From positions 62,001-126,000 of IMG/VR virus record IMGVR_UViG_3300044568_006268: DNA of 64,000 nucleotides. One strand, written 5' to 3'. The DNA is from an uncultured virus (IMG/VR IMGVR_UViG_3300044568_006268). Lineage: Duplodnaviria; Heunggongvirae; Uroviricota; Caudoviricetes. Under the pieces are notes generated by a model. That model had not been told where the DNA came from and ran no database searches. It saw nothing but the letters and a program-made list of their open reading frames with translations. Positions 1,192 to 12,817 of the stretch are shown piece after piece; position 1 is the first letter of the stretch, and every line of letters begins with the position of its first letter. Made by a program: the position numbers and the translations under genes.

Positions 1192-1411
1192 GTATTTGAT
1201 TTTGGGTAGTATTAACTGATGCCGGAAATAACATTCGAGTAAGTAACATCATTAAGAACATATCGTTATACGATACGAAAGGTCCATCAAAAATTCTTGG
1301 TACAGTAAGATTCCAAAGAATCATGGTTGGAAATGCAAATACGGCAATTACAATAGCAGCAAGAATAAAATACTGAAAAGTTGCACTTATTCCGAGTAAG
1401 ATTGTCTTCAT
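1166..1411 (-). CDS. small membrane protein
   Basis: Hydrophobic 81 aa ORF downstream of a promoter box. Confidence 0.6.
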   Translation of the reverse strand: MKTILLGISATFQYFILAAIVIAVFAFPTMILWNLTVPRIFDGPFVSYNDMFLMMLLTRMLFPASVNTTQNQILDNEEKSI

Positions 1412-1508
1412 AATAAATAGTTTATTGTTATATGTTTGAAAGAGTAAATATAATCAACATTATCTAAAAATGAAAACTTTAGAGCATTTAGTTATTAACA
1501 AATACAAC

Positions 1509-1535
1509 AAAAGCTCAATCTTACGATTAAGCTTT
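1509..1535 (-). terminator. intrinsic terminator ending the His/Ser/Arg/Gln/Thr/Leu tRNA block
   Basis: AAAGCTTAATC-loop-GATTGAGCTTTTG on the minus strand. Confidence 0.6.
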
Positions 1536-1592
1536 ATCGAAGGTATATTAGGCCATACCAATAACCAGGACCTTTTCCCTAGGGAAATGTCG

Positions 1593-1675
1593 TGACCAAA
1601 GAGGGACTCGAACCCTCACGCTCAAAGAGCACCAGCTTCTTAGACTGGCGTGTCTACCAATTCCACCACTCGGCC
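1593..1675 (-). tRNA. tRNA-Leu(AAG), A34 anticodon
   Basis: Stem CCAGT/GCTGG, loop CT-AAG-AA, long variable arm, GGTTCGAGTCC T-arm. Confidence 0.85.
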
Positions 1676-1803
1676 GTAATGAGCAATCCTATGGAATTAC
1701 TGCAGTTTATCCAAAGGTCGTATATAGCTTGCAGACTAAGATTCTGCTGGATTTTCACCTTCATAAAGCTGGATATCAACGACCCTTATCGCGATTCTCA
1801 TTG

Positions 1804-1877
1804 TACCCGAGATGGGACTCGAACCCACACTGTACAGGGTTTAAGTCTGATGCCTCTTCCAATTGGGCTACCCGGGC
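1804..1877 (-). tRNA. tRNA-Leu(TAA), short variable arm
   Basis: Cloverleaf, loop CT-TAA-AC, imperfect anticodon stem. Confidence 0.8.
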
Positions 1878-2044
1878 AAATTAAAGAAGTAAGAAAATGA
1901 ACTCCTTAACAGCTGAACGTTCAATAACTTTAAGAATCATTTTGCTTGTATCTCTAGGATTTGCAACTCCTATAAATTCACAAAATGCTTTTTGTTTATT
2001 CATTATTGTTCATTTCAATTTTGTTATTGCATTATTAGGAATAA

Positions 2045-2115
2045 CGATACTATAGGACTCGAACCTATACCTTCCAGCTCGCTCGCCGGAATTCTACCAA
2101 ATTAAACTAAATACC
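2045..2115 (-). ncRNA. tRNA-like RNA with non-canonical anticodon loop
   Basis: D-arm and T-arm present; TTCCGGC-GAGCGA-GCTGGAA replaces the 7-nt loop. Confidence 0.6.
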
Positions 2116-2153
2116 AACCTTTTTATCTCAATAACAAAAGATGTCCTTCTTTG

Positions 2154-2226
2154 TACCTAAGGAGGGATTCGAACCCACACTGTCATGCTCCTAAGGCATG
2201 TGCCTCTTCCGTTGGGCTACTTAGGC
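2154..2226 (-). tRNA. tRNA-Leu(TAG)
   Basis: CATGC-CTTAGGA-GCATG. Confidence 0.9.
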
Positions 2227-2434
2227 AAATTGGTAAGTGATGGCCTACTTGTTACCATCTGTCTCTGTTTAGTTGCAACCACTAATCCTGAATGTAGAGA
2301 ACTTACCTTTTGTTTTATGTTAGCTAATAAACATTGTTTCTAATGTTATTAACATCATCTTTTTAATTTTTGTACATTATAATATACATTAAGCCACAAT
2401 ATGACGTGTTTTGTATATTATAGTGTACATTTTG

Positions 2435-2507
2435 AGCTGACAATCAGGATCGAACTGATGACCTCTTCGATACCAACGAAGTGTTCTTCCAACTGAACTA
2501 TGTCTGC
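2435..2507 (-). tRNA. tRNA-Thr(GGT)
   Basis: CTTCG-TTGGTAT-CGAAG. Confidence 0.9.
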
Positions 2508-2513
2508 ATATTA

Positions 2514-2612
2514 CAGGGTTGTTAATTACCTCTTTCGAGGATTTCGGAGTTGAACCGATAGACAAAATTTCAAGTTTCGTGTTTAACCAATAGTTGTTTG
2601 CTGAAACAACCC
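2514..2612 (-). ncRNA. structured RNA: GGGTTGTT-TCAGCAA...AACAACCCTG helix enclosing a tRNA core
   Basis: 8-bp closing helix; internal D-like TGGTTAAAC, CGAAA-CTTGAAA-TTTTG arm, TCGG-TTCAACT-CCGA T-arm. Confidence 0.55.
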
Positions 2613-2617
2613 TTTTG

Positions 2618-2691
2618 AGCTGACAGTCAGGATCGAACTGACTCTGTTCCGGGTTACAAATCCGGTGCACCACCATTCATGCGTTGCCAGC
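2618..2691 (-). tRNA. tRNA-Thr(TGT)
   Basis: CCGGA-TTTGTAA-CCCGG. Confidence 0.85.
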
Positions 2692-2701
2692 ATATGTTTC
2701 G

Positions 2702-2772
2702 TTGGGATACTAGGTTTCGAACCTAGGCGGACTGGCTCAAAACCAGTAATGCTACCGTTACATCATATCCCA
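2702..2772 (-). tRNA. tRNA-Gln(TTG)
   Basis: ACTGG-TTTTGAG-CCAGT. Confidence 0.85.
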
Positions 2773-2778
2773 ATGTAG

Positions 2779-2849
2779 TTATCCGAGGTGGATTCGAACC
2801 ACCAATGACTGCACCAAAAACAGTAGTGTTACCGTTACACTATCGGACA
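2779..2849 (-). tRNA. tRNA-Gln(TTG)
   Basis: ACTGT-TTTTGGT-GCAGT. Confidence 0.9.
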
Positions 2850-2850
2850 G

Positions 2851-2924
2851 TGACCATAATAGGATTCGAACCTATAACCGCTGGTTTAGAAAACCAGTGC
2901 TCTATCCAATTGAGCTATATGGCC
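2851..2924 (-). tRNA. tRNA-Arg(TCT)
   Basis: CTGGT-TTTCTAA-ACCAG. Confidence 0.9.
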
Positions 2925-2995
2925 AATTAAGTTCTCCAACCCTGGAACTTATACATATCATCATTAAGCGGTCACATAGAATGTGAGATATGTTG

Positions 2996-3081
2996 AAGAG
3001 AAGATGGGACTCGAACCCACAAACCGAATTAACGGTTAACGGATTAGCAATCCGCTGCAGTACCATTATGCTTACTTCTCT
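2996..3081 (-). tRNA. tRNA-Ser(GCT)
   Basis: GCGGA-TTGCTAA-TCCGT, long variable arm. Confidence 0.9.
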
Positions 3082-3189
3082 ATAAAAAGTTAAAGGCAGA
3101 ATTCCAAATCTGCATTTTTATTCTAAAACGAGAATAACGTGAGTTTTATCGATACGTCTATCGAGGCAATTATCACTACTTTAACTTAA

Positions 3190-3279
3190 TGGAGGAGAGA
3201 GTGGGATTCGAACCCACGGAACGCTTTCACGCTCAATAGTTTTCAAGACTATCCTAATCAACCTCTCTAGCACCTCTCC
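3190..3279 (-). tRNA. tRNA-Ser(TGA), encoded CCA
   Basis: ATAGT-CTTGAAA-ACTAT, long variable arm. Confidence 0.9.
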
Positions 3280-3285
3280 ATTATT

Positions 3286-3363
3286 TGGGGTGGAAGACGG
3301 GACTCGAACCCGCGATCTCTAGAACCACAATCTAGCGCTTTAACCAACTAAGCTACAACCACC
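3286..3363 (-). tRNA. tRNA-His(GTG), encoded CCA
   Basis: CTAGA-TTGTGGT-TCTAG, G-1. Confidence 0.9.
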
Positions 3364-3374
3364 ATGTATAAAAC

Positions 3375-3409
3375 AAAAAAGCTCGATTCATTTGATAGAA
3401 CCGAGCTTT
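3375..3409 (-). terminator. attenuator terminator C
   Basis: AAAGCTCGGTTC-loop-GAATCGAGCTTTTTTG between leader C and tRNA-His. Confidence 0.85.
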
Positions 3410-3443
3410 GCAATTTAGTATTTATATTTTCACATAAGAACCA

Positions 3444-3518
3444 TCACACTTCGGTACTGTTTTCAGATCTTGTTAGATGCTGAAGCGACGTTAACGATAA
3501 TGTACTTGAAGTTCTCAT
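3444..3518 (-). CDS. leader peptide C, MRTSSTLSLTSLQHLTRSENSTEV
   Basis: Manual translation; codons 2-18 are only R/T/S/L/Q/H, the amino acids of the downstream tRNAs. Confidence 0.85.
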   Translation of the reverse strand: MRTSSTLSLTSLQHLTRSENSTEV

Positions 3519-3550
3519 TGTTTGTAATTTATTATTTTTTATATATACTG

Positions 3551-3578
3551 TTATATGTCTAAAATTGCTGAGAGTTTC
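3551..3578 (-). promoter_or_regulatory. GAAACT-N15-CATATAA promoter, block C
   Basis: Same bipartite motif and spacing at 6140, 9470, 44908 and 56118. Confidence 0.7.
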
Positions 3579-3602
3579 AAAAAACTTTCAATTTATTTTC
3601 TA

Positions 3603-3701
3603 GTGAAGACAATTGGGATCGAACCAATGGCACGCCTATGTTCCTTATCGATCATACCAATAAGTACTGAAGGTTGCTCTACCAACTGAGCTATATCTTC
3701 A
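3603..3701 (-). ncRNA. tRNA-like RNA with expanded anticodon arm
   Basis: Acceptor, D (TAGCTCAGTTGGTAGAGC) and T arms intact; extra CTTATTGGT/ATCGATAAG hairpin in place of the anticodon loop. Confidence 0.7.
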
Positions 3702-3705
3702 TTTG

Positions 3706-3776
3706 TAGCGGATTAAGGACTCGAACCTCGCCATTGGGTTATGAGCCCGATATGCTACCAATTACACTAAACCGCA
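3706..3776 (-). tRNA. tRNA-Met(CAT), initiator-like
   Basis: GGG-CTCATAA-CCC. Confidence 0.8.
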
Positions 3777-3778
3777 AG

Positions 3779-3875
3779 ATGACCTTAAGGATTCGAACCT
3801 TTAACTTGTTTCCTCTTTTAGTTTTGCAAACCTACTCAATTCTACCGTGCCCAATACACTATTGCCAATCGTCAT
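3779..3875 (-). ncRNA. degenerate/expanded tRNA-like RNA (possible GCA loop)
   Basis: AAGGTTCGAATCCTT T-arm, TGAC/GTCA ends, TTGCAAA loop; irregular D region. Confidence 0.4.
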
Positions 3876-3917
3876 TTTCGAACATGACAGCCTTAAGTTA
3901 ATTACTCTTAAGATTTG

Positions 3918-3989
3918 TAGTCCCACCGGGAATCGAACCCGACTTTTCAGGATGAAAACCTGATGACCTAACCGATAGTCGATAGGACC
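3918..3989 (-). tRNA. tRNA-Glu(TTC)
   Basis: TCAGG-TTTTCAT-CCTGA. Confidence 0.9.
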
Positions 3990-4172
3990 AATTAAGTTAT
4001 ATCAAATTCTCCCGCAGAGATACCGACCCATTGCTGAGCCAGAGAGGACTTGAACCTCTGATTCTCAATAACTAATTTAAAAGAATTAAAGAGTAGAGCT
4101 CTTCAACGATTTCGGCATTTCAGCTGGATCTTTATGCCAACTTCCTAATCCTTAGTCCGTTTAATTCTTGTA

Positions 4173-4247
4173 GTATTATGTACGGGACTCGAACCCGTGT
4201 TATCAACGTGAAAGGCTGACGTCCTAGACCAACTAGACGAACATAAC
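4173..4247 (-). tRNA. tRNA-Glu(TTC)
   Basis: TCAGC-CTTTCAC-GTTGA. Confidence 0.9.
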
Positions 4248-4251
4248 ATTT

Positions 4252-4464
4252 TTAAGCTTCTTCAGAGACAAGTCCTAAAACTTCTTCTCTGTAAATTTTA
4301 TTCAATTCACTTACTTCAATATCGATATTCGTTTGTGGATATCGGTGAAGTAAAATCTTAACTAATCTGATTCGTTTCTCAGCCAAATCTTGATTAAAGT
4401 CCATTTCAATCATTGCATCACTTAAATGAGATTGAATTGCGATTGATAATTTGATAGTTTCCAT
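4252..4464 (-). CDS. hypothetical protein
   Basis: 70 aa ORF behind a promoter box at 4488-4546. Confidence 0.65.
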   Translation of the reverse strand: METIKLSIAIQSHLSDAMIEMDFNQDLAEKRIRLVKILLHRYPQTNIDIEVSELNKIYREEVLGLVSEEA

Positions 4465-4558
4465 AATGTGATTGTTTAATTTTAATAAGTAAAACTAATC
4501 AATTTAATTGACATATGGAAATTATTTTTCAAAAAGTTATTAACAATTTTAAAATAAA

Positions 4559-4732
4559 AAGTTTGTCACCGGCACAGATTGGTGAATACCCAAGTACAAC
4601 CGAATGTACCCGATACCTTACTAACAAAATGAACGGATCTGTGTTTCCTGTATGCGGCAAGTGACCTCCTTCCTTGCTTGTGTTTCCGTATCGATGTGTG
4701 CGGCAACATACCATTTTGAGTTCAACAAACTT
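4559..4732 (-). ncRNA. candidate structured ncRNA
   Basis: Closing helix AAGTTTGTT/GACAAACTT; internal repeat TTGCCGCA...GGAAACACA twice; directly 3' of tRNA-Met. Confidence 0.45.
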
Positions 4733-4736
4733 CTTG

Positions 4737-4809
4737 TAGCGGGAGCAGGACTCGAACCTGCGACCTTTGGGTTATGAGCCCACTGAGCTACCAACTGCTC
4801 TATCCCGCA
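4737..4809 (-). tRNA. tRNA-fMet(CAT)
   Basis: GGG-CTCATAA-CCC, unpaired 1:72. Confidence 0.9.
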
Positions 4810-4835
4810 ATATACCTTTTAAGTAGAACCATCAA

Positions 4836-5027
4836 CTATATTTCTGTTGATGATTCTAATTGTCTTAATTTTAAACCTTCTTCAATTGTTTGAATGATGT
4901 CCTCAATTATTTGAGCTCGCGTAACATCAAAGTTACCATTCATTCCATTCAAATCTTTTGCATCAATTGCAATAGATCCTACTGACTTACCGTCTTTCTG
5001 TAATTCAATTACTAATGTATCAAACAT
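4836..5027 (-). CDS. hypothetical protein
   Basis: 63 aa ORF. Confidence 0.6.
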   Translation of the reverse strand: MFDTLVIELQKDGKSVGSIAIDAKDLNGMNGNFDVTRAQIIEDIIQTIEEGLKLRQLESSTEI

Positions 5028-5092
5028 AATATAGCTTTTTATTTAATTGTTTTATGCAATTTGAAATAAATTGTTTCTCTTCTTATTAACAT

Positions 5093-5551
5093 CTATCTAC
5101 AGATTCTATCAGCTACATATGAAGCCGAGCATGCATCTGGTTTACATCTAGCGTTATAACCTAATGATTCTACATAACCTAAAGCAGAACGCAGAATTGA
5201 ATTAGATTGATACTTAGGGTCTGGATTAAAATCCAAATCAATAAATGCAGGTTTTTCAATATCATTAGCTTCAAGCCATTGAGCTAATTCAACTGAATCT
5301 TCTACCTCTTTCCAAAGTCTAGTAAATCTATCTAAGATTCTAGGAATTGATTTACGAGAGTAGATAACGTGACCTCCTCGATTACCGTAATGTAAAACAA
5401 TAACCATTGCGTAAATTGTATTTCTTCCAATATTTTGCGAATCTGAACCGATATACATTTTGATGTCTTTACCAGTTGCGAGTTTGTCCTTTAAATAAGG
5501 AATTAAGTCAATTACTTGACCGTTTGTTAACGATTGAAATTTCCGGTCCAT
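5093..5551 (-). CDS. RNase H-like YkuK (DUF458) family protein
   Basis: YIGSDSQ ... EVEDS ... IDLD ... KPDA.SASYVAD pattern. Confidence 0.8.
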   Translation of the reverse strand: MDRKFQSLTNGQVIDLIPYLKDKLATGKDIKMYIGSDSQNIGRNTIYAMVIVLHYGNRGGHVIYSRKSIPRILDRFTRLWKEVEDSVELAQWLEANDIEKPAFIDLDFNPDPKYQSNSILRSALGYVESLGYNARCKPDACSASYVADRICR

Positions 5552-5571
5552 GATTATTAAATTTATGTTAG

Positions 5572-5642
5572 AGGCGAGTATAGGATTCGAACCTATGTAA
5601 CTGATTTTGCAGACCAGCGCCTAACCGCTCGGCCAACTCGCC
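5572..5642 (-). tRNA. tRNA-Cys(GCA)
   Basis: CTGGT-CTGCAAA-ATCAG. Confidence 0.9.
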
Positions 5643-5647
5643 ATTTG

Positions 5648-5719
5648 TGACTCTAGAGAGACTCGAACTCCCATCTCCTGATCCGTAGTCAAGTGTTCTA
5701 TCCATTGAACTATAGAGCC
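5648..5719 (-). tRNA. tRNA-Arg(ACG)
   Basis: CTTGA-CTACGGA-TCAGG. Confidence 0.9.
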
Positions 5720-5728
5720 ATTATTTTG

Positions 5729-5801
5729 TCGGGAAGACAGGACTCGAACCTGCGGCCTCATGCTCCCAAAGCACGCGATCTACCAACTGATCTACTTCCC
5801 G
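5729..5801 (-). tRNA. tRNA-Pro(TGG)
   Basis: CGTGC-TTTGGGA-GCATG. Confidence 0.9.
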
Positions 5802-5848
5802 TGGCAGAGAGGCTTTTGAAGTGCCCTGCTAGTTCATCTTTTAATTTG

Positions 5849-5922
5849 TCGAATAGACAGGAATCGAACCTGCTAACTGATACGTCCAAGGTACCCGTGC
5901 TTAAAACCTTAGTCACTACTCG
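5849..5922 (-). tRNA. tRNA-Pro(TGG), divergent
   Basis: GGTAC-CTTGGAC-GTATC. Confidence 0.75.
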
Positions 5923-5931
5923 TTTAAAAAC

Positions 5932-5967
5932 AAAAAAGCCTGAATCGGTTGAATGATTCAGGCTTTT
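5932..5967 (-). terminator. attenuator terminator B
   Basis: AAAAGCCTGAATC-loop-GATTCAGGCTTTTTTG between leader B and tRNA-Pro. Confidence 0.85.
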
Positions 5968-5988
5968 ATATGATGATGTTACTTTATA

Positions 5989-6084
5989 TCATTCAAAAAC
6001 CTGCATACCATTCTCACATGCCTCAGGACGAGGGCATTCTACTGTTAACTGCGATGTTGTTAGTATGTGTGAAAGTATTAACAT
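5989..6084 (-). CDS. leader peptide B, MLILSHILTTSQLTVECPRPEACENGMQVFE
   Basis: Manual translation; ECPRPEACENGM matches the downstream Pro, Arg(ACG), Cys, Met and Glu tRNAs. Confidence 0.8.
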   Translation of the reverse strand: MLILSHILTTSQLTVECPRPEACENGMQVFE

Positions 6085-6139
6085 TTTAATTTTTATTAGC
6101 AAAGACTCTTTATCTTTGTTTAGTTCTTTTATATATCTT

Positions 6140-6167
6140 TTATATGTTCCGTTATTGCGGAAGTTTC
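6140..6167 (-). promoter_or_regulatory. GAAACT-N15-CATATAA promoter, block B
   Basis: Repeated bipartite motif. Confidence 0.7.
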
Positions 6168-6328
6168 AAAATTATTTTATTCTTTTCTATTTGTGCTTTA
6201 ATCTTAGCAATCTTTTCTGGACTAGGATTTCTATCTATCGTATACGAAACACCCATCTTGTCCATGTAATCGTAAAGAAGTTGCATATCTTCATTAGTAG
6301 TTTTAGTTGTTTTCATAATAACTATTTG

Positions 6329-6402
6329 AGCGGATATTCGGATTCGAACCGAAACTTCAGACTTGGAAGGCCCACGTGCTAGCCGTTAAACACCATACCC
6401 GC
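6329..6402 (-). tRNA. tRNA-Gly(TCC)
   Basis: loop CT-TCC-AA. Confidence 0.88.
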
Positions 6403-6412
6403 ATTTTGTTTG

Positions 6413-6485
6413 AGCAATAAATCAGATTCGAACTGACGACCTCTACCTTGGCAAGGTAATGCTCTACCAACTGAGCTATTATTGC
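6413..6485 (-). tRNA. tRNA-Gly(GCC)
   Basis: TTACC-TTGCCAA-GGTAG. Confidence 0.9.
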
Positions 6486-6552
6486 ATTTGAAGGACTTGC
6501 ACCTTCTGGACATGGTTTGTTTCGCCTAAGTCGCCATGTCAACAGACCCGAG

Positions 6553-6624
6553 AGGGCAGAGTGAGATTCGAACTCACGACCAGTTGATTAACAGTCAACT
6601 GCTCTACCGCTGAGCTATCCACCC
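6553..6624 (-). tRNA. tRNA-Asn(GTT)
   Basis: GTTGA-CTGTTAA-TCAAC. Confidence 0.88.
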
Positions 6625-6630
6625 TTATTG

Positions 6631-6741
6631 CAGGAATGTAAGGAATCGAACCTTAGCATCTTCCGAGACAGGGAGTAATTTATGCAGAATACAATCTTCG
6701 CAGATTGAGTTTTAAGCGTGCTACCATTACACCACATTCCT
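6631..6741 (-). ncRNA. tRNA-Asp(GTC)-like RNA with a 40-nt insertion (6674-6713) in the anticodon stem
   Basis: Removing the insert gives CTTCC-CTGTCTC-GGAAG; G73 discriminator. Confidence 0.65.
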
Positions 6742-6749
6742 GTATTTTG

Positions 6750-6866
6750 TGGGCTCATATGGGCTCGAACCATAATCTCTTCCTAATGACATCCTACCAT
6801 ACTAAAAAGGAATCGAACCTTAGACTCATTATCGAGAAAGCGCTTTGCCAATTAAGCTAATCGCCC
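6750..6866 (-). ncRNA. tRNA-like RNA with a second, permuted T/D elbow in place of the anticodon loop
   Basis: Outer cloverleaf arms; inner TAATGA[AAGGTTCGATTCCTT...TAGTATGGTAGGATG]TCATTA. Confidence 0.65.
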
Positions 6867-6872
6867 ATGTAG

Positions 6873-7004
6873 TGAAGAATCCTAGACTCGAACTAGGAAT
6901 GTCAATTAAGACGCCGGTTTTACATCCTTTAAATTGCTGAATAAACACTTTGCACAGTGTTTGCCTTTTTGGACCGGAGCGTTTACCAATTCCGCCAATT
7001 CTTC
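6873..7004 (-). ncRNA. tRNA-Tyr(GTA)-like RNA with a 47-nt insertion (6925-6971) in the anticodon loop
   Basis: Removing the insert gives CCGGT-CTGTAAA-ACCGG; G1:C72, A73, long variable arm. Confidence 0.7.
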
Positions 7005-7011
7005 ATTATTG

Positions 7012-7083
7012 TTCTCCCGCTGGGAGTCGAACCCAGCCTCATAGATTAAAAGTCTATTGCCCACACCAGTCTGCTACGAGAGA
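7012..7083 (-). tRNA. tRNA-Lys(TTT), divergent
   Basis: ATAGA-CTTTTAA-TCTAT. Confidence 0.8.
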
Positions 7084-7169
7084 TTGTAAAGTTTTCTATT
7101 GCCAACCTCTCAACAGTGTAGAGTATTGACCTATCTATGTTTTCGCTTCATGTTCATTATATTATTTAG

Positions 7170-7243
7170 TGGCCAAGCCTGGACTCGAACCAGGGACCTT
7201 CGCATTATGAGTGCGCCGCTCTAACCAACTGAGCTACATGGCC
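7170..7243 (-). tRNA. tRNA(CAT), Ile2 or elongator Met
   Basis: CGCA-CTCATAA-TGCG. Confidence 0.85.
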
Positions 7244-7359
7244 AAAAATGTAGGGTTATCCGGTACCTACACTGATTAATGACAATCAGACCATCGTTCA
7301 CCACCTGTAAGAGCCTAACGATAGATACTGTACTTGCTTACACTCAAGTATCCGCTGGG

Positions 7360-7433
7360 TAGCGAGGACCGGGATCGAACCGGCGACCTTTGGTTTATGA
7401 ATCCAATGTTACTACCAACTGAACTACCTCGCC
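7360..7433 (-). tRNA. tRNA-Met(CAT), elongator
   Basis: loop TT-CAT-AA. Confidence 0.85.
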
Positions 7434-7472
7434 AAATTGTAAGTTTTGAATGGACTTACAACCATTGATAGA

Positions 7473-7703
7473 TTATTGGTGATGAGGAATATACTTTCCG
7501 TTCTTAACTCTAACTGCCAGTTTGGTCACGTTAAAATTCCAACAATCAAATGTACTTAATGCAGATCTTTGTTTTGCAAGACTAATGGCTTGCTTTTCTG
7601 CTTTTTCTCGACCTTCTTCCGTTGTTTCGACGAAAAAAGTGGGAGCCTGAACACCAGTCTTACTGGTAGGAACTACTCTCCAAATTCTCAAATTAGTAAT
7701 CAT
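7473..7703 (-). CDS. hypothetical protein
   Basis: 76 aa ORF. Confidence 0.6.
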   Translation of the reverse strand: MITNLRIWRVVPTSKTGVQAPTFFVETTEEGREKAEKQAISLAKQRSALSTFDCWNFNVTKLAVRVKNGKYIPHHQ

Positions 7704-7783
7704 AAGTTTTAGCTAAGCTAGACCTATGAGGAATTGTACGATTTTGTTGACATTTGATTTATATTTTTTTATTATATGTTCGA

Positions 7784-8230
7784 TTAAGCCAGAGATTCAA
7801 TAACCTCTTTTACTAATTTTGTATCGGCAAGACCTGGAAATTTCTTAACGAAAGCACCCATAGTCATACCTATTAATTTTTGTTTGTTTAATTCTAAAAC
7901 AGAACCGAGTAAAACATTAACTTCAGTTTCAATTTCAGCTCTAGTCATTTGCTTTGGCAAGTACTTTTCAATAACACCTAATTCATTAGCTTCAGATTCC
8001 ACTAAATCGAATCGACCAGCTTTTGTAAATTCTTCAATAGATTGTCTACGTTGTTTGATTGTAGAAATTACTGCATTTAGAACTAACTCATCAGTAAGTG
8101 GACCAGCATGCTTTGCCTTTTCAGCATCTTGGATTTTTGCCTTTAATCCACTTAATGCATTCTTCGCAATCGCGTTTTTCTCTTTGAATGCTACTATATA
8201 GTCAGCATTGATTGTTTCTCTTAAATTCAT
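7784..8230 (-). CDS. GatB/YqeY domain protein
   Basis: KQRRQSIEEF..AGR.DL...E..EL..IEKYLPKQM signature. Confidence 0.9.
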   Translation of the reverse strand: MNLRETINADYIVAFKEKNAIAKNALSGLKAKIQDAEKAKHAGPLTDELVLNAVISTIKQRRQSIEEFTKAGRFDLVESEANELGVIEKYLPKQMTRAEIETEVNVLLGSVLELNKQKLIGMTMGAFVKKFPGLADTKLVKEVIESLA

Positions 8231-8246
8231 CTTTACTAATTTTTAG

Positions 8247-8327
8247 TGGGCAACAGTGGACTCGAACCACTCCCGTGAGGACCAGATTTACAGTCTGGCT
8301 GCCGTATCCGAACGACTTTTGCGGCCC
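8247..8327 (-). tRNA. tRNA-Tyr(GTA)
   Basis: CCAGA-CTGTAAA-TCTGG. Confidence 0.85.
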
Positions 8328-8336
8328 ATTATATTG

Positions 8337-8410
8337 TGACTCCTCTGGGACTCGAACCCAGGACTCCCTCATTAAAAGTGAGGTGCTCTAGCCGACTGAG
8401 CTAAGAAGTC
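8337..8410 (-). tRNA. tRNA-Lys(TTT)
   Basis: CCTCA-CTTTTAA-TGAGG. Confidence 0.9.
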
Positions 8411-8420
8411 ATTGTAATAG

Positions 8421-8494
8421 CAGTCCTAACGGAATTCGAATCCGCAATCTCTTCCGTGACAGGGAAGCGTCATACGCCAATATGCTGTAGGACT
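8421..8494 (-). tRNA. tRNA-Asp(GTC)
   Basis: CTTCC-CTGTCAC-GGAAG. Confidence 0.85.
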
Positions 8495-8581
8495 ATATAA
8501 AAATTATTTAGTTTAAGCTCCTTTAAACCATGTAATTTCAGGGAGCTATTTGAGCTTATGCATGGAACTAAATAATAATTG

Positions 8582-8655
8582 CCGAGATGACGGGACTCGA
8601 ACCCGTGACCTTCGCCGTGACAGGGCGACATTGTAACCAACTCTACTACACCTCG
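8582..8655 (-). tRNA. tRNA-Asp(GTC)
   Basis: TCGCC-CTGTCAC-GGCGA. Confidence 0.9.
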
Positions 8656-8710
8656 ATTTCTAATTTCACGCTCACACTATGCAGTTCTATAAATTAGTAA
8701 CAGTCTCATC

Positions 8711-8788
8711 TGGGCTCTCCTGACTGGATTCGAACCAGTAACCCTCACCTTAACAGGGTGTCGCTCTAACCGTTGGAGCTACAGGAGA
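8711..8788 (-). tRNA. tRNA-Asn(GTT)
   Basis: CACC-CTGTTAA-GGTG. Confidence 0.9.
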
Positions 8789-8873
8789 ATATTTGATGTT
8801 TTAATTATAAGACAAATATAAACAATGTCATTGACATATGAAAATATTTAATCAAATAGTTATTAACAATTTG

Positions 8874-8945
8874 TGGAGCTACCGGGATTCGAACCCGGAA
8901 TAACAGAGTGCAAGTCTATCGTGATGCCAATTTCACTATAGCCCC
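8874..8945 (-). tRNA. tRNA-Ala(TGC)
   Basis: loop CT-TGC-AC, G3:U70. Confidence 0.9.
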
Positions 8946-8955
8946 ATTAAATTTG

Positions 8956-9030
8956 TAGGAGATGACGGAATCGAACCGACGACCTTTTGCGTGTAAAACA
9001 AACGCTCTAAACCAACTGAGCTAATCTCCT
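8956..9030 (-). tRNA. tRNA-Val(TAC)
   Basis: TTTGT-TTTACAC-GCAAA. Confidence 0.9.
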
Positions 9031-9036
9031 AAATTG

Positions 9037-9110
9037 TAGGTAATATGAGACTCGAACTCATAACCTCCTCGGTATCAGCGAGGTGCTCTAACCAATTGAG
9101 CTAACTACCT
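9037..9110 (-). tRNA. tRNA-Ile(GAT)
   Basis: CCTCG-CTGATAC-CGAGG. Confidence 0.9.
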
Positions 9111-9117
9111 GTGGCAG

Positions 9118-9188
9118 CACGAATGGAAGGATTCGAACCTTCATCGACGGTTTTGGAGACCGGCATGCTACCATTGCACCACACTCGT
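9118..9188 (-). tRNA. tRNA-Trp(CCA)
   Basis: CGGT-CTCCAAA-ACCG. Confidence 0.9.
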
Positions 9189-9195
9189 ATTTTAG

Positions 9196-9268
9196 TGGTA
9201 AGGGACGGGATCGAACCGTCATCATCGGATTTTCAGTCCGCTGCATAGACCAACTTTGCTACCTCACC
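9196..9268 (-). tRNA. tRNA-Phe(GAA)
   Basis: CGGA-CTGAAAA-TCCG. Confidence 0.9.
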
Positions 9269-9274
9269 AAAAAC

Positions 9275-9308
9275 AAAAAACCTCTGAATTTTTGAAGATT
9301 CAGAGGTT
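9275..9308 (-). terminator. attenuator terminator A
   Basis: AACCTCTGAAT-loop-ATTCAGAGGTTTTTTG between leader A and tRNA-Phe. Confidence 0.85.
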
Positions 9309-9335
9309 AAAGTATATTGTATTAAAATATCGATA

Positions 9336-9434
9336 CTACATCCGAATCACATTGCTATCCACATAATCATTCCCGGCAAACTTAATCGCCCAGTCAAAAT
9401 TCATGTTAATATTTATGTTAGTAGTAGGTATCAT
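9336..9434 (-). CDS. leader peptide A, MIPTTNININMNFDWAIKFAGNDYVDSNVIRM
   Basis: Manual translation; codons 6-26 use only, and all of, the 11 amino acids of the downstream tRNA block. Confidence 0.85.
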   Translation of the reverse strand: MIPTTNININMNFDWAIKFAGNDYVDSNVIRM

Positions 9435-9469
9435 TTTATTGATGTTTTAATATTGTTTTATATATACTG

Positions 9470-9497
9470 TTATATGTTCTAAATTTCAAAAAGTTTC
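9470..9497 (-). promoter_or_regulatory. GAAACT-N15-CATATAA promoter, block A
   Basis: Repeated bipartite motif; ACATATAACAGTATATA identical to block C. Confidence 0.7.
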
Positions 9498-9526
9498 AAC
9501 TTATTTTTATATTATTTTAATCTTAG

Positions 9527-10090
9527 TTAGTCCCACCAAGAATCATATTCTTTAGCGAAGATTTCCATTGCTAAAGCAAAGTCTTTACTTCTATTCAAAT
9601 GAGCAATTTTCATACCCATTATGTATTCTTTGTTCTTTTTTCTCAGCTGAGCAGGTGTATATCGCTCATCATTCCTATCCATCAATCTGTGGCAATCTGG
9701 ACGATCTTCGCAAGGAATAGTATAGTAATCTGACTTACCCCATTTAGCGTCATGCTTTTCTCTATATGGCTCGTCGTAGTTATCTTCATGCACTTTCGTT
9801 AATAACTCTAAACATTCAGTCATCGTTCGAATTTGCTTTTCGCGATTCTCATCGACTGTATGGCCATGGTCTTTAACGTATTTGATATGAGCTTTCAACT
9901 TAAAAAGAATTGGTTCCATAATGTAATGGTTATCCCAATCTCTATCTCGCCATACAATAGGCATCCATCGAATTATATTCTTAATTCCTCTCACAAAATC
10001 CTTGGAAGGAATCTTGACGTATTCCTTCCAATAAAATTTTGCATTGTCTACCGCTTCTTCAACGTAGAACTTAATTCGTTCGTTTATCAT
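9527..10090 (-). CDS. hypothetical phage protein
   Basis: 187 aa ORF, WRDRDWD and C-terminal WWD. Confidence 0.75.
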   Translation of the reverse strand: MINERIKFYVEEAVDNAKFYWKEYVKIPSKDFVRGIKNIIRWMPIVWRDRDWDNHYIMEPILFKLKAHIKYVKDHGHTVDENREKQIRTMTECLELLTKVHEDNYDEPYREKHDAKWGKSDYYTIPCEDRPDCHRLMDRNDERYTPAQLRKKNKEYIMGMKIAHLNRSKDFALAMEIFAKEYDSWWD

Positions 10091-10104: not shown

Positions 10105-11421
10105 TTAACCTTCAGCTTCTTCGGTATCAATTACTCCAGAATCTTTTACGATTCCTTCAAGTACTTTGAATTCGAAAGACTTGAATTTGAATGTTTTGTT
10201 TACCAAACCACCTTCAATTCTTACACAAACTCCTTCTTTGATATGTCTAGTATCTAAGATAGATGGACCAGTTCCGAATGTTTCGACGGTGTTGCTGAAA
10301 TATTCTCGCAAATCTCTATCATCGAATTTATGAGTGATTGCTTCTAATTCGTTTAAGGTTATCGTAGCAACATGTGGTACAGTTTTTACACCTAATTCAT
10401 TACAACGTTTTACAACATCATTCCAAGCATAATCGATAGATTGACCATCTTCATTAGCAAATGTCATACGGTAAACATAAACCTCAGATTGAGTAGGTTC
10501 ACAACCATAAGAATAAGCCATAGACTTACCGTATTGTTTCGTAAACTCTTTATCACCCATTTTGGTTGTATCAACAGATGGCATAATTGCAGCTCCTGTA
10601 GATTCGTAACCTACAATTTCAAAATAAACGGTTTCACCTTTTCTTAAGTTACCTTTGAATAAGTTCATTGCTTTATCTCGGATGGTTGGGTCATGGAATT
10701 GATTTGCGGATTTTGATTCTCCTAAAACAACTCTACGAGTACCATTCAAATAAGCCCATTCTTTGTCGTTGATAGCTAATCCAAATTTAGTAACAAGTTT
10801 TTCTAACCAACCTAATTCTCTAGTCATTTGAACGTGACCAATACGACCTGAAGTACCGTGAAGTTTTTCAGTAATAATGATGTGTTGACCCTTTTCAAAT
10901 TCGTGGATACTCTTACCAAAGTGTCCGGTATCAAAATGTTCTTTGAACATTACAGAAGATCTAGAAACTCGGGTTTTCTTACCTTGATTTTCTCTAGCAA
11001 TTTTAGCCGTATTTGGATTTACATATTTGTTACAGATAGGTACACCTTTCCATTCGTCAAATTCAAATCCTTCTACATCTAAACCAGTTACCATAATGAA
11101 TCCAAAGTAATGTAATGGAACCCAGAAACCATCAGAGATTTCACCTCTAAATTTTTGAGCTCTTACTCTTCGGTTTGCATCGAACATTCCACCTTTCTCA
11201 TCTTTTCTAGCATTTAACTCGGCATCACGATAAAGGTTGTTTGCTTTACAGAACTCATCGGATAACTGACCATCAGATGGAAAGTAAACTCCTAAATGTC
11301 CTTCTAAAGAATCTAAACCAATTACTACTTGATTACCGTGACAAGTTGCTAATTGAACTTTGTCTGCGTTAGGATGTGGTCTCACGTTTGTCAACCTAGT
11401 GACGATTGCATTGTATGCCAT
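10105..11421 (-). CDS. RNA ligase, DRB0094/Rnl2-like, with N-terminal tRNA-binding OB fold
   Basis: HPNADK N-domain; TEKLHGTS motif I; EGVCVR motif IV; FKFKS motif V. Confidence 0.85.
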   Translation of the reverse strand: MAYNAIVTRLTNVRPHPNADKVQLATCHGNQVVIGLDSLEGHLGVYFPSDGQLSDEFCKANNLYRDAELNARKDEKGGMFDANRRVRAQKFRGEISDGFWVPLHYFGFIMVTGLDVEGFEFDEWKGVPICNKYVNPNTAKIARENQGKKTRVSRSSVMFKEHFDTGHFGKSIHEFEKGQHIIITEKLHGTSGRIGHVQMTRELGWLEKLVTKFGLAINDKEWAYLNGTRRVVLGESKSANQFHDPTIRDKAMNLFKGNLRKGETVYFEIVGYESTGAAIMPSVDTTKMGDKEFTKQYGKSMAYSYGCEPTQSEVYVYRMTFANEDGQSIDYAWNDVVKRCNELGVKTVPHVATITLNELEAITHKFDDRDLREYFSNTVETFGTGPSILDTRHIKEGVCVRIEGGLVNKTFKFKSFEFKVLEGIVKDSGVIDTEEAEG

Positions 11422-11507
11422 GATTTCGTATTTTTAATTTATAAGACAAATATAATCAATGTCTTCGACACTTGAAAATAATTTCTCATTAAGTTATTAA
11501 CAATTAG

Positions 11508-11618
11508 TAGTCAGAACAGGATTCGAACCTGTATGGTGTTACCTAGAGTACTCAATACAGAGCGGTAAATCGGTTACGAACCATTACTCTTAGCGTCTTC
11601 CAATTCCGCCACCTGACT
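11508..11618 (-). ncRNA. isolated tRNA-like RNA with expanded, anticodon-less arm
   Basis: AGTCAGG/TCTGACT acceptor, TGGCGGAATTGGAAGACGC D-arm, ACAGGTTCGAATCCTGT T-arm. Confidence 0.7.
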
Positions 11619-11634
11619 CGATAGAACTAGCCTA

Positions 11635-11985
11635 TCATGATTGTGTAGATTTAATGTACACAATTATTCCAATGATTGAAAGAAAGCACAATGCTAATAC
11701 TGTTATTGCAGGTAAATAATCTTCTTTCTCTCTCCAAATTTTGTAATTATATCGAGGTTCGTTCTGCTTCCACGAATGGTCTTCAGACTTCTCAGACTTA
11801 ACATATTTTTTGTTTAGTTTTTTTAGGGATTTCCTAATTTCCTTTTTACATGGTTCAGCACCACAACAATAAAAAAATGATATATCTGTTTCGCTTATCA
11901 GCTTAGTAGTAGCTTCTTCCTCGCAACAATAACAATAATTTGGTTTCATATTAATACTCTTTAATGAGTACGGTACCATCTCCAT
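11635..11985 (-). CDS. Cys-rich protein with C-terminal TM (likely start about 11949)
   Basis: CxCC...CC..xxC and a hydrophobic tail. Confidence 0.55.
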   Translation of the reverse strand: MEMVPYSLKSINMKPNYCYCCEEEATTKLISETDISFFYCCGAEPCKKEIRKSLKKLNKKYVKSEKSEDHSWKQNEPRYNYKIWREKEDYLPAITVLALCFLSIIGIIVYIKSTQS

Positions 11986-12817
11986 GCTCTAAACAGTCAA
12001 CGCAAAAGATAGTGTCTTTTACTTCTGGCCATCTACCAGCAGTCGGTTCAGTATCGTATTCAGTTACTTTGTGATGGGGTGTATGTCCGATTACTTGGTC
12101 ATAACCTTCTAATGCATCCCATCTTAATCTTCTCGGTCTAATCCAAACAGGACCTGCAAATTCTGAATATCCACCAGAATCTCCATCTACGTTAAATAAA
12201 ATATTTAAACGATATTGCCAAGCTTTATTGATAATCTCATCCGGCCTAAGATTCCAATCTCCTTCAAAATCTGCTTTGAATCGGAAACCGTCTCTTTTAA
12301 CCGTTGCATGCAATTGGCGTAACCAACCATGAGTTACTCCAGCATGAGTCCATAAAGTTCGCTTTAACCTACCATCGATTTCTCTTTCATGATAATATGC
12401 GAAAGTAAATTTGTCGATGTTTTTAGTAAACAACTCTTGAAAATCAAATTTCATTTCAGGTCGATAACCTGAACAGATTTGATCGGCTACAATATATTGA
12501 ATATCGTGATTTCCTAAAAGCAAGACTATTTTGTCTGGATATTCGGTTTTTAAATGTATGATTTCCTCTAGATTTAATTTCATCTCTAGGTTTTGTACAT
12601 CAAATGAATCTACGTAATCTCCAACGAAAACGATTTTATCCATTTCGTTAAAAATAGGATAGGTGTCTTCAAACGCTTCTTTTGCTCCGTTATCTACTTC
12701 CTGTCTCCAGCTATTATAGTCCGTTAGAGAGCCGAATAACACAGTCTTCCAGGTATTTCTTCCGTGGATATCTCCGATAGACATGATTTTCATTGTAGTT
12801 TTCATTTTATGGTTCAT
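11951..12817 (-). CDS. calcineurin-like metallophosphoesterase
   Basis: GDIHG, GDYVD, GNHD, HAG, GHT motifs. Confidence 0.9.
   Translation of the reverse strand: MNHKMKTTMKIMSIGDIHGRNTWKTVLFGSLTDYNSWRQEVDNGAKEAFEDTYPIFNEMDKIVFVGDYVDSFDVQNLEMKLNLEEIIHLKTEYPDKIVLLLGNHDIQYIVADQICSGYRPEMKFDFQELFTKNIDKFTFAYYHEREIDGRLKRTLWTHAGVTHGWLRQLHATVKRDGFRFKADFEGDWNLRPDEIINKAWQYRLNILFNVDGDSGGYSEFAGPVWIRPRRLRWDALEGYDQVIGHTPHHKVTEYDTEPTAGRWPEVKDTIFCVDCLEHGDGTVLIKEY

Follow-up and report, generated by a model that had tools for sequence, protein, structure and literature searches.

It has long been asked why phages carry large sets of transfer RNA (tRNA) genes and at what point they use them. We examined this question at a locus in 64,000 bases of DNA from an uncultured virus of the Caudoviricetes, bases 62001-126000 of the 129 kb IMG/VR record IMGVR_UViG_3300044568_006268; we call the whole of this stretch the window. 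ARAGORN found 35 tRNA genes here, all on the minus strand, between 9268 and 1592, and the first of them is preceded by a short open reading frame (ORF) that we call leader A. An earlier reading of the letters alone, hereafter the original prediction, had noted that this ORF spells out the amino acids of the tRNA genes behind it. What might such an ORF do for the array? We found that the array is divided into three blocks, each headed by a promoter-like motif, a leader ORF, and a terminator. We propose, with a probability of about 70%, that these units (A, C, and B) are multivalent ribosome-mediated attenuators, each of which would gate one tRNA block and be opened by any limiting tRNA of that block.

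Leader A lists the amino acids of its tRNA block

The features of unit A and of the block that follows it are:

9456..9518, minus strand: promoter-like region, with a conserved 22-base motif (9477-9456) and an upstream TTGAAA-type element
9336..9434, minus strand: leader A ORF, 32 codons plus stop
9375..9390, minus strand: 5-pair hairpin inside leader A, from the consensus fold of four orthologues
9341..9348, minus strand: putative antiterminator strand A, 8 bases within codons 29-31 able to pair with the 5' arm of the terminator
9269..9308, minus strand: intrinsic terminator A, an 11-pair stem (4 G-C) at 9308-9279 followed by a T tract up to tRNA-Phe; -13.7 kcal/mol
6328..9268, minus strand: tRNA block A, 16 genes with 11 identities (ARAGORN, Rfam), with a YqeY-like ORF and small ORFs between them

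According to the original prediction, codons 6-26 of leader A use eleven kinds of residue and no others. This was borne out, as they encode only Asn, Ile, Met, Phe, Asp, Trp, Ala, Lys, Gly, Tyr, and Val, each at least once. The further claim that these are the identities of the tRNA genes downstream also held for the 16 genes that ARAGORN places on the minus strand at 9268-6328 (in order Phe, Trp, Ile, Val, Ala, Asn, two Asp, Lys, Tyr, two Met, Lys, Asn, and two Gly). The lower boundary of this block was set independently, at the point where the next unit of promoter motif, short ORF, and terminator begins (6147-5934). Over the whole peptide, 26 of the 31 residues after Met1 belong to the block A set, with an uninterrupted run of 21 and all 11 identities present. 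The probability calculation that had been suggested as a check gave 1.5e-5 for a run of at least 21 together with all 11 identities, using random peptides of the phage's amino-acid composition.

As a control that carries the AT bias of the phage DNA, we used the 1022 ORFs of 20-40 codons in the six frames of the 129 kb record. Leader A has the longest in-set run among them (21, the next being 16) and is the sole ORF to reach an in-set fraction of 0.84 or more while covering all 11 identities. Read in its five other frames, this DNA gave in-set runs of 1-8 and never full coverage. These results confirm that the listing in leader A is real and far beyond chance.

Three units of one architecture partition the array

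Two further units lie within the array, each again followed by a block of tRNA genes:

6127..6147, minus strand: promoter-like motif, unit C
5989..6084, minus strand: leader C ORF, 31 codons, the second half listing Glu, Cys, Pro, Arg, and Met (block C) and the first half block B amino acids
5923..5967, minus strand: terminator C with T tract, 13 pairs, -18.0 kcal/mol, adjoining tRNA-Pro
3604..5922, minus strand: tRNA block C, with two Pro, Arg(acg), Cys, two Met, two Glu, an insert-bearing tRNA-like element, and RNase H-like and other ORFs
3537..3558, minus strand: promoter-like motif, unit B
3444..3518, minus strand: leader B ORF, 24 codons, of which codons 2-18 encode only Arg, Thr, Ser, Leu, Gln, and His
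3363..3409, minus strand: terminator B with T tract, 12 pairs, -16.5 kcal/mol, adjoining tRNA-His
1592..3362, minus strand: tRNA block B, with His, two Ser, Arg(tct), two Gln, Thr(ggt), three Leu, one gene of unclear anticodon, and a Thr(tgt)-like element

A single promoter-like motif of 21-22 bases has three copies in the 129,487-base record (at 9477, 6147, and 3558), each ahead of a leader, and its 21-base core occurs in two exact copies versus an expected 0. Searching the record with the leader region showed that bases 9518-9446 are repeated at 3599-3528 with 78% identity. The ORF follows the motif at a distance of 18-42 bases and is 32 (A), 31 (C), or 24 (B) codons long. The T tract of each terminator ends 0-12 bases before a tRNA gene (Phe in A, Pro in C, His in B), leaving no space for a further promoter. 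These landmarks divide the array into three blocks without reference to the peptides. The resulting sets are the 11 identities of block A, then Pro, Arg, Cys, Met, and Glu for block C, and His, Ser, Arg, Gln, Thr, and Leu for block B.

Leader B has 19 of 23 residues in set B, a run of 17, and all six identities (binomial P = 3.4e-7); such a run occurred in 0 of 2,000,000 random peptides, and leader B ranks first by run among the 1022 small ORFs (17, next 12). In leader C, 10 of 30 residues belong to set C, the longest run being 6 and all five identities being present, and 13 of 30 belong to set B, of which all six members occur. Its run and coverage have a joint probability of 1.2e-4 in random peptides of phage composition, and the run ties for the longest among the small ORFs.

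The leaders also fit their own blocks better than each other's. With each leader assigned to the block that it precedes, 55 of 84 residues match, whereas the five wrong assignments score 43, 32, 19, 17, and 16. When the leaders were held fixed and the 20 amino acids were permuted in the block sets, 2 of 200,000 relabellings scored at least 55, and 14 of 200,000 covered every identity of the three blocks. Across the 15 alternative frames of the three leaders, in-set runs were 1-8 and the block was fully covered in two. Out-of-block residues sit in the last six to eight codons of each leader, and the listing ends where the putative antiterminator strand starts.

At the level of codons, the 35 tRNAs read most sense codons by a strict wobble count, so decoding discriminates poorly, and information comes only from the isoacceptor patterns of Arg, Leu, and Ser. 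Leader B uses the Arg codon AGA twice and its block has tRNA-Arg(tct); leader C uses CGT and its block has tRNA-Arg(acg). In leader B, each of the three Leu isoacceptors is also matched by one codon, and both Ser isoacceptors are represented. All three leaders are biased to codons that are rare in the phage (0 of 5000 resamplings as low for A; P = 0.013 for C and 0.025 for B). This bias fits a sensitive sensor, and would also fit a sequence constrained by RNA pairing.

Could the leaders be spurious ORFs that arose by accident in the AT-rich DNA separating the array from the terminator of the gene upstream? The codons of block A amino acids are AT-rich, 59% of the proteome consists of these residues, and a simple binomial test gives only 0.003 for leader A and 0.016 for leader C. 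Such an origin is contradicted by the same-DNA null, where the leaders rank first, first, and tied first of 1022, by the relabelling test, and by the restriction of the signal to one frame. Moreover, the codons of set B are GC-richer, yet leader B gives the strongest signal, and the ORF with its content persists in relatives whose neighbouring gene is 52-53% identical (see below). We consider chance an extremely improbable explanation.

Leader ends are complementary to the terminator arm

The original prediction also had a segment just before the stop of leader A pairing with the 5' arm of the terminator. In nascent-transcript folds this pairing was recovered, as bases 9348-9341, two codons before the stop, pair with the 5' arm of terminator A (duplex -11.3 kcal/mol, shuffle P = 0.009). 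This window is the best of 26 along the ORF. With the 3' arm withheld, the end of the ORF pairs with the terminator 5' arm in both A and C, forming a long helix in C, where the last eight codons give duplexes of -10.7 to -12.9 kcal/mol (shuffle P 0.0025-0.005). When the arm was cut short, the shuffle test for leader A was not significant. Nine leaders were compared, three from this phage and six from relatives, and in eight of them no stretch of the ORF pairs better with the terminator 5' arm than its last 24 bases. The case for an antiterminator thus depends on this best-window position and on substitutions in relatives, not on energies alone.

Between the stop codon and the terminator stem there are 17-35 bases, so a terminating ribosome would be too far away to mask the terminator. 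This arrangement is that of a classical attenuator, in which a ribosome at the stop would cover the complementary strand and a ribosome stalled upstream would free it. The 5-pair hairpin inside leader A and the terminator are the only structures in the consensus fold of the four orthologues, and two of the hairpin's pairs vary on one side with pairing kept. It is possibly an RNA polymerase pause hairpin.

A leader with a choice between terminator and antiterminator and a relation to tRNA could also be a T-box-like sensor, made of RNA only and binding uncharged tRNA directly. In bases 1400-9600, only the tRNA family passes the Rfam threshold, and neither a match to the leaders nor a T-box match was found there. 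A single specifier, furthermore, cannot explain 6-11 amino acids that are listed in the reading frame alone. We find an RNA-only sensor scarcely credible.

The units are conserved and varied among relatives

A metagenome scan yielded three relatives with orthologues of unit A (L146, L148, and L149). The promoter-like motif is kept in all three, and the stem of terminator A is invariant in four of four orthologues. Leader A of L146 differs by two residue changes, one of which, a G-to-A substitution, converts the sole G-U pair of the putative antiterminator to A-U. L148 and L149 are more distant, with neighbouring genes 53% and 52% identical. Their leader ORFs have 34 and 36 codons, and 26 of 33 and 26 of 35 residues belong to set A, with all 11 identities present in each. 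Many positions of the peptides have changed, and near the end of each ORF 7-8 bases remain complementary to the terminator arm. In a 17 kb relative, G001, whose neighbouring gene is 95% identical, the ORFs of leaders A and B are unchanged.

To look further afield, we examined 173 heads of tRNA arrays in loci L062-L225. Eleven have an abutting terminator, and in ten of these an ORF of at least 20 codons ends 5-70 bases before the terminator. The ten comprise the three unit A orthologues, leaders with nearly all amino acids, and two block-matched cases. The leaders with nearly all amino acids come from distant lake phages, in which ORFs of 30-46 codons with 18-20 different amino acids stand before arrays of 15-23 tRNAs; two more, each 51 codons long, were recognised by similarity. 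One ORF of 33 codons contains all 20 amino acids and precedes 23 tRNAs (random P = 5e-4), and the weakest two leaders of relatives have a random-peptide P of 0.17. As a reference, all 20 amino acids occur in 5 of 592 ORFs of 39-46 codons in loci L062-L139, and two of those five are tRNA leaders. The block-matched cases are a 29-codon ORF with 8 of 28 residues Tyr, Ala, or Cys before Tyr-Ala-Cys tRNAs (P = 0.008) and a 25-codon ORF with 8 of 24 residues Cys or Leu before Cys-Leu tRNAs (P = 5.5e-4). Between L121/L140 and L141, a single base differs in the leader complement, and the 5' arm and the 3' arm of the terminator both carry matching changes.

The design varies among relatives and is not universal. 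The locus L074 (50% GC) has 29 tRNAs after the homologue of the neighbouring gene, and a sigma-70-type promoter with no leader. A 246 kb relative (G008) has a few scattered tRNAs and no array, and in two loci (L150, L151) other genes follow the neighbouring gene. The sole match to the neighbouring 187-residue gene among cultured phages, Flavobacterium phage immuto, has a tRNA region without a leader/terminator unit. Among 47 viral-contig stretches with the promoter-like motif, occurrences outside the phage's own relatives were chance-like; two (L044, L055) have tRNAs nearby and no comparable leader. DNA searches of a phage collection with the leader region, near and distant, returned tRNA similarity only, and neither these nor protein searches with the neighbouring gene gave a cultured example of the unit.

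The leader A orthologues share a conserved peptide core, and the L121, L140, and L141 leaders are 47-67% identical as peptides. This is what would be seen if the ORFs encoded small functional proteins with their own promoter and terminator beside tRNA genes that are transcribed in some other way, for instance from the sigma-70-like matches inside the blocks that are described below. A small protein leaves unexplained why the composition matches the downstream tRNAs, why peptides of 30-51 residues hold 18-20 kinds of amino acid, why the last codons complement the terminator arm, and why terminators touch the first tRNA with no promoter space. The rare-codon bias is also unlike that of ordinary phage genes. 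We therefore regard small proteins as improbable.

A proposed mechanism and its difficulties

The units show a short ORF before the genes that they would regulate, enrichment for the codons of the block, an intrinsic terminator, and an alternative pairing that a ribosome at the stop could block. The original prediction implied a leader-peptide attenuator that samples the whole block and has its antiterminator close to the end of the ORF. At the level of sequence its expectations were upheld in the frame-specific listing, the sister units, the abutting terminators, the arm pairing, and the orthologues. From the anatomy, composition match, pairing potential, and conservation that are observed, we infer the start of transcription, translation, termination, read-through, and trigger as follows. 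Transcription would begin at the dedicated promoter-like motif, and a ribosome would translate the leader of 24-32 codons, the first three quarters of which would sample every amino acid of the block, often through rare codons. The last few codons would complement the 5' arm of the terminator that adjoins the first tRNA gene. When the sampled aminoacyl-tRNAs are plentiful, the ribosome would reach the stop and cover the complement, the terminator would form, and the block would stay untranscribed. When any one of them is scarce, the ribosome would stall upstream, the complement would pair with the terminator arm, and the polymerase would enter the block. The new tRNAs would relieve the stall, making a negative feedback. 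Candidate triggers are the high demand of late infection and a loss of host tRNAs through shut-off or anticodon nucleases.

The leaders have no Shine-Dalgarno sequence. Of the 86 ORFs in the record that reach 150 codons, only 6 have a Shine-Dalgarno core at -20 to -4, and the sequence around starts is rich in A, so its absence from the leaders is no objection. The rarity of the sequence fits a host that initiates translation without it. Protein searches with the neighbouring 187-residue gene found cultured relatives in Flavobacterium phages only, and the host is presumably of the Bacteroidota type.

Three metatranscriptome runs hold small parts of the window as contigs. One (9205-9428) spans leader A, terminator A, and part of tRNA-Phe, and another (5848-5995) spans terminator C and tRNA-Pro. 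These are compatible with read-through transcripts and are not proof of them. Parts of the window without contig cover are uninformative.

A number of observations weigh against the attenuator as proposed. The first group concerns pairing and transcription. The antiterminator pairing of leader B is weak (-8.2 kcal/mol, shuffle P = 0.2), though it is the best window of that ORF, and with dinucleotide shuffles of the ORF 3' end, the pairing test fell below 0.05 in four of the nine leaders and missed in five. Nascent-transcript folds revealed no anti-antiterminator that would compete with the antiterminator, and untranslated transcripts would thus read through by default. Sigma-70-like matches lie inside the blocks, such as 8831-8804 with 11 of 12 positions, and could give transcription independent of the attenuator; they number 46 versus 39.6 in shuffles (sd 5.3), which is no excess. 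In the L121/L141 group, about 100-140 bases with a second promoter-like motif separate the terminator from the first tRNA (L141 3620-3700, L121 2100-2180), where a basal promoter may serve the array as well. The contigs from RNA libraries may derive from carried-over DNA, and they show neither transcript ends, depth, nor strand.

The second group concerns the listing. Leader C is weak by fraction (10 of 30), and leader A leaves tRNA-Gly(gcc) unsampled. Leader A also has two codons, GCC and CGG, without a phage tRNA to read them under strict wobble, one of them within the antiterminator strand. In G001, the unchanged leader A is followed only by Phe, Trp, Ile, Met, and two Glu tRNAs, and block B lacks Thr, Ser(gct), and Leu(aag). 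This means that the listing does not track recent gene loss or that the genes lie outside the fragment. The distant leaders exceed the identities of their arrays; that of G005 has all 20 amino acids, and ARAGORN found no Lys, Trp, Tyr, or Cys tRNA in the stretch examined.

Several of these points favour another use of a translated ORF, in which read-through would be controlled by the opposite logic or by a non-specific one, such as overall translation capacity or the coupling of transcription to translation. Distant leaders hold 18-20 amino acids whatever tRNAs follow, the G001 leaders stayed the same after their blocks changed, and no anti-antiterminator was found. Opposed to this are the partition of the three leaders by block (55 of 84 matches versus at most 43, reached in 2 of 200,000 relabellings), the Arg codons that match the isoacceptor of the block, and the relatives' Tyr-Ala-Cys and Cys-Leu blocks with matching leaders. 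A stop codon 17-35 bases before the stem also leaves a terminating ribosome unable to mask the terminator. We judge such logic to be unlikely, though it is the strongest of the alternatives, and retain block-specific attenuation as the preferred reading.

If the units are attenuators of this kind, they may amount to a modular, demand-driven supply of tRNAs. Each leader would act as an OR-gate over exactly its block, and the loss of one tRNA, for example to an anticodon-nuclease defence, would switch on only the set to which it belongs, the product then closing the gate. The leaders with nearly all 20 amino acids would be the unsplit form. We lean slightly towards this wider interpretation.

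The array and its surroundings

The same region, identical in sequence, occurs in a 294 kb record that is estimated to be 91% complete, so the source is a giant phage. Near-identical DNA is present in lake-water metagenomes. Other genes near or within the array are:

7784-8230, minus strand: YqeY-like ORF in block A
5093-5551, minus strand: RNase H-like ORF in block C
10105-11421, minus strand: RNA ligase (OB-fold and RNA_ligase domains), just upstream of the array
11951-12817, minus strand: calcineurin-like phosphoesterase, just upstream of the array

Protein ORFs lie on the same strand within the tRNA blocks, and read-through transcripts would therefore be mixed tRNA-mRNA precursors. An RNA ligase next to a phosphoesterase is a combination characteristic of tRNA repair, and suggests that damage to tRNAs is of consequence for this phage.

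Rfam added three tRNA-like elements on the minus strand that ARAGORN missed at default settings (6631-6741, 3604-3700, and 2618-2691), two of which have inserts of about 40 and 16 bases that are introns or decay. For the insert-bearing element at 6631-6741, the intron mode of ARAGORN guesses Asp, and the identity set of block A is the same either way. The element at 2618-2691 has, read by eye, a Thr(tgt)-type anticodon loop and would read the ACA and ACG codons of leader B. The tRNA at 2044-2116 (minus strand) has an abnormal anticodon loop. All four tRNAs with a CAT anticodon were called Met by ARAGORN. The two in block C (4736-4809 and 3705-3776, minus strand) are initiator-like, with three G-C pairs in the anticodon stem and an unpaired first base, and the two in block A are of the elongator type. 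One of the latter could be an Ile tRNA for ATA, a codon used twice in leaders A and C.

Among the relatives, G001 (L011) has three paralogous ORFs between its tRNA genes (9067-9720, 11280-11927, and 8702-8929, minus strand) that by eye resemble GIY-YIG-type homing endonucleases, and L147 has inserts of about 700 bases between tRNAs. G008 encodes a transfer-messenger RNA (tmRNA) with a 29-residue tag (L144 8491-8888).

Significance and comparison with known systems

Phage tRNA arrays have been considered as supplements or as a counter-defence (eLife 2023, PMC10264068). The accessible part of that work concerns the tRNAs themselves, whereas the units described here concern the control of tRNA transcription by leader peptides. 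In a literature search mostly of sources outside subscription journals, we came across no account of tRNA genes, phage or cellular, under the control of a leader peptide or attenuator. If our reading is correct, the phage would gauge its decoding capacity codon by codon and make tRNAs on demand. The units would then be the first attenuators known to act on tRNA genes, and the first, too, in which the product acts directly to remove the signal being sensed. Each unit would name the shortages to which it should respond, and so make a testable prediction of the rival ideas about phage tRNAs, namely codon compensation, substitution for host tRNAs that have been degraded, and evasion of tRNA-cutting defences. 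Having three separate blocks in one genome provides a natural control for specificity, and the units, at about 230 bases, are portable and could serve as in vivo reporters of the supply of single tRNAs.

Three kinds of known system resemble the units in part. T-box riboswitches likewise respond to the state of a tRNA by selecting either a terminator or an antiterminator. They differ in being RNA-only, with one specifier codon, and in targeting genes for synthetases, biosynthesis, or transport, whereas the signal in the phage depends on the reading frame. The pheST attenuator of E. coli has a Phe-rich leader and controls phenylalanyl-tRNA synthetase. It places a component of translation under leader-peptide control by the supply of charged tRNA, as the phage units are proposed to do; it differs in that its target is a synthetase, one amino acid is sensed, and the gene is cellular.

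The closest likeness is to the attenuators of enterobacterial amino-acid operons, among which ilvGMEDA, ilvBN, and thr are multivalent; others are trp, his, leu, and pheA, and the leu leader uses rare codons. No Rfam leader family matched at E <= 0.1 in 1400-9600, and the genes downstream are tRNAs, so homology to the classical attenuators was not found. The likeness is one of design. Both have a short leader rich in codons for the amino acids that are, or in the phage would be, sensed, a terminator before the genes, several amino acids per leader in the ilv and thr types, and an alternative pairing with the terminator 5' arm that a ribosome at the stop could block, with rare codons as in the leu leader. 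Unlike these attenuators, the phage units have no clear 1:2 anti-antiterminator. They would regulate tRNA genes instead of biosynthetic enzymes, and they list 6-11 amino acids (18-20 in relatives), each once to a few times, rather than one to three in runs. They are also carried by a phage, in three block-specific copies.

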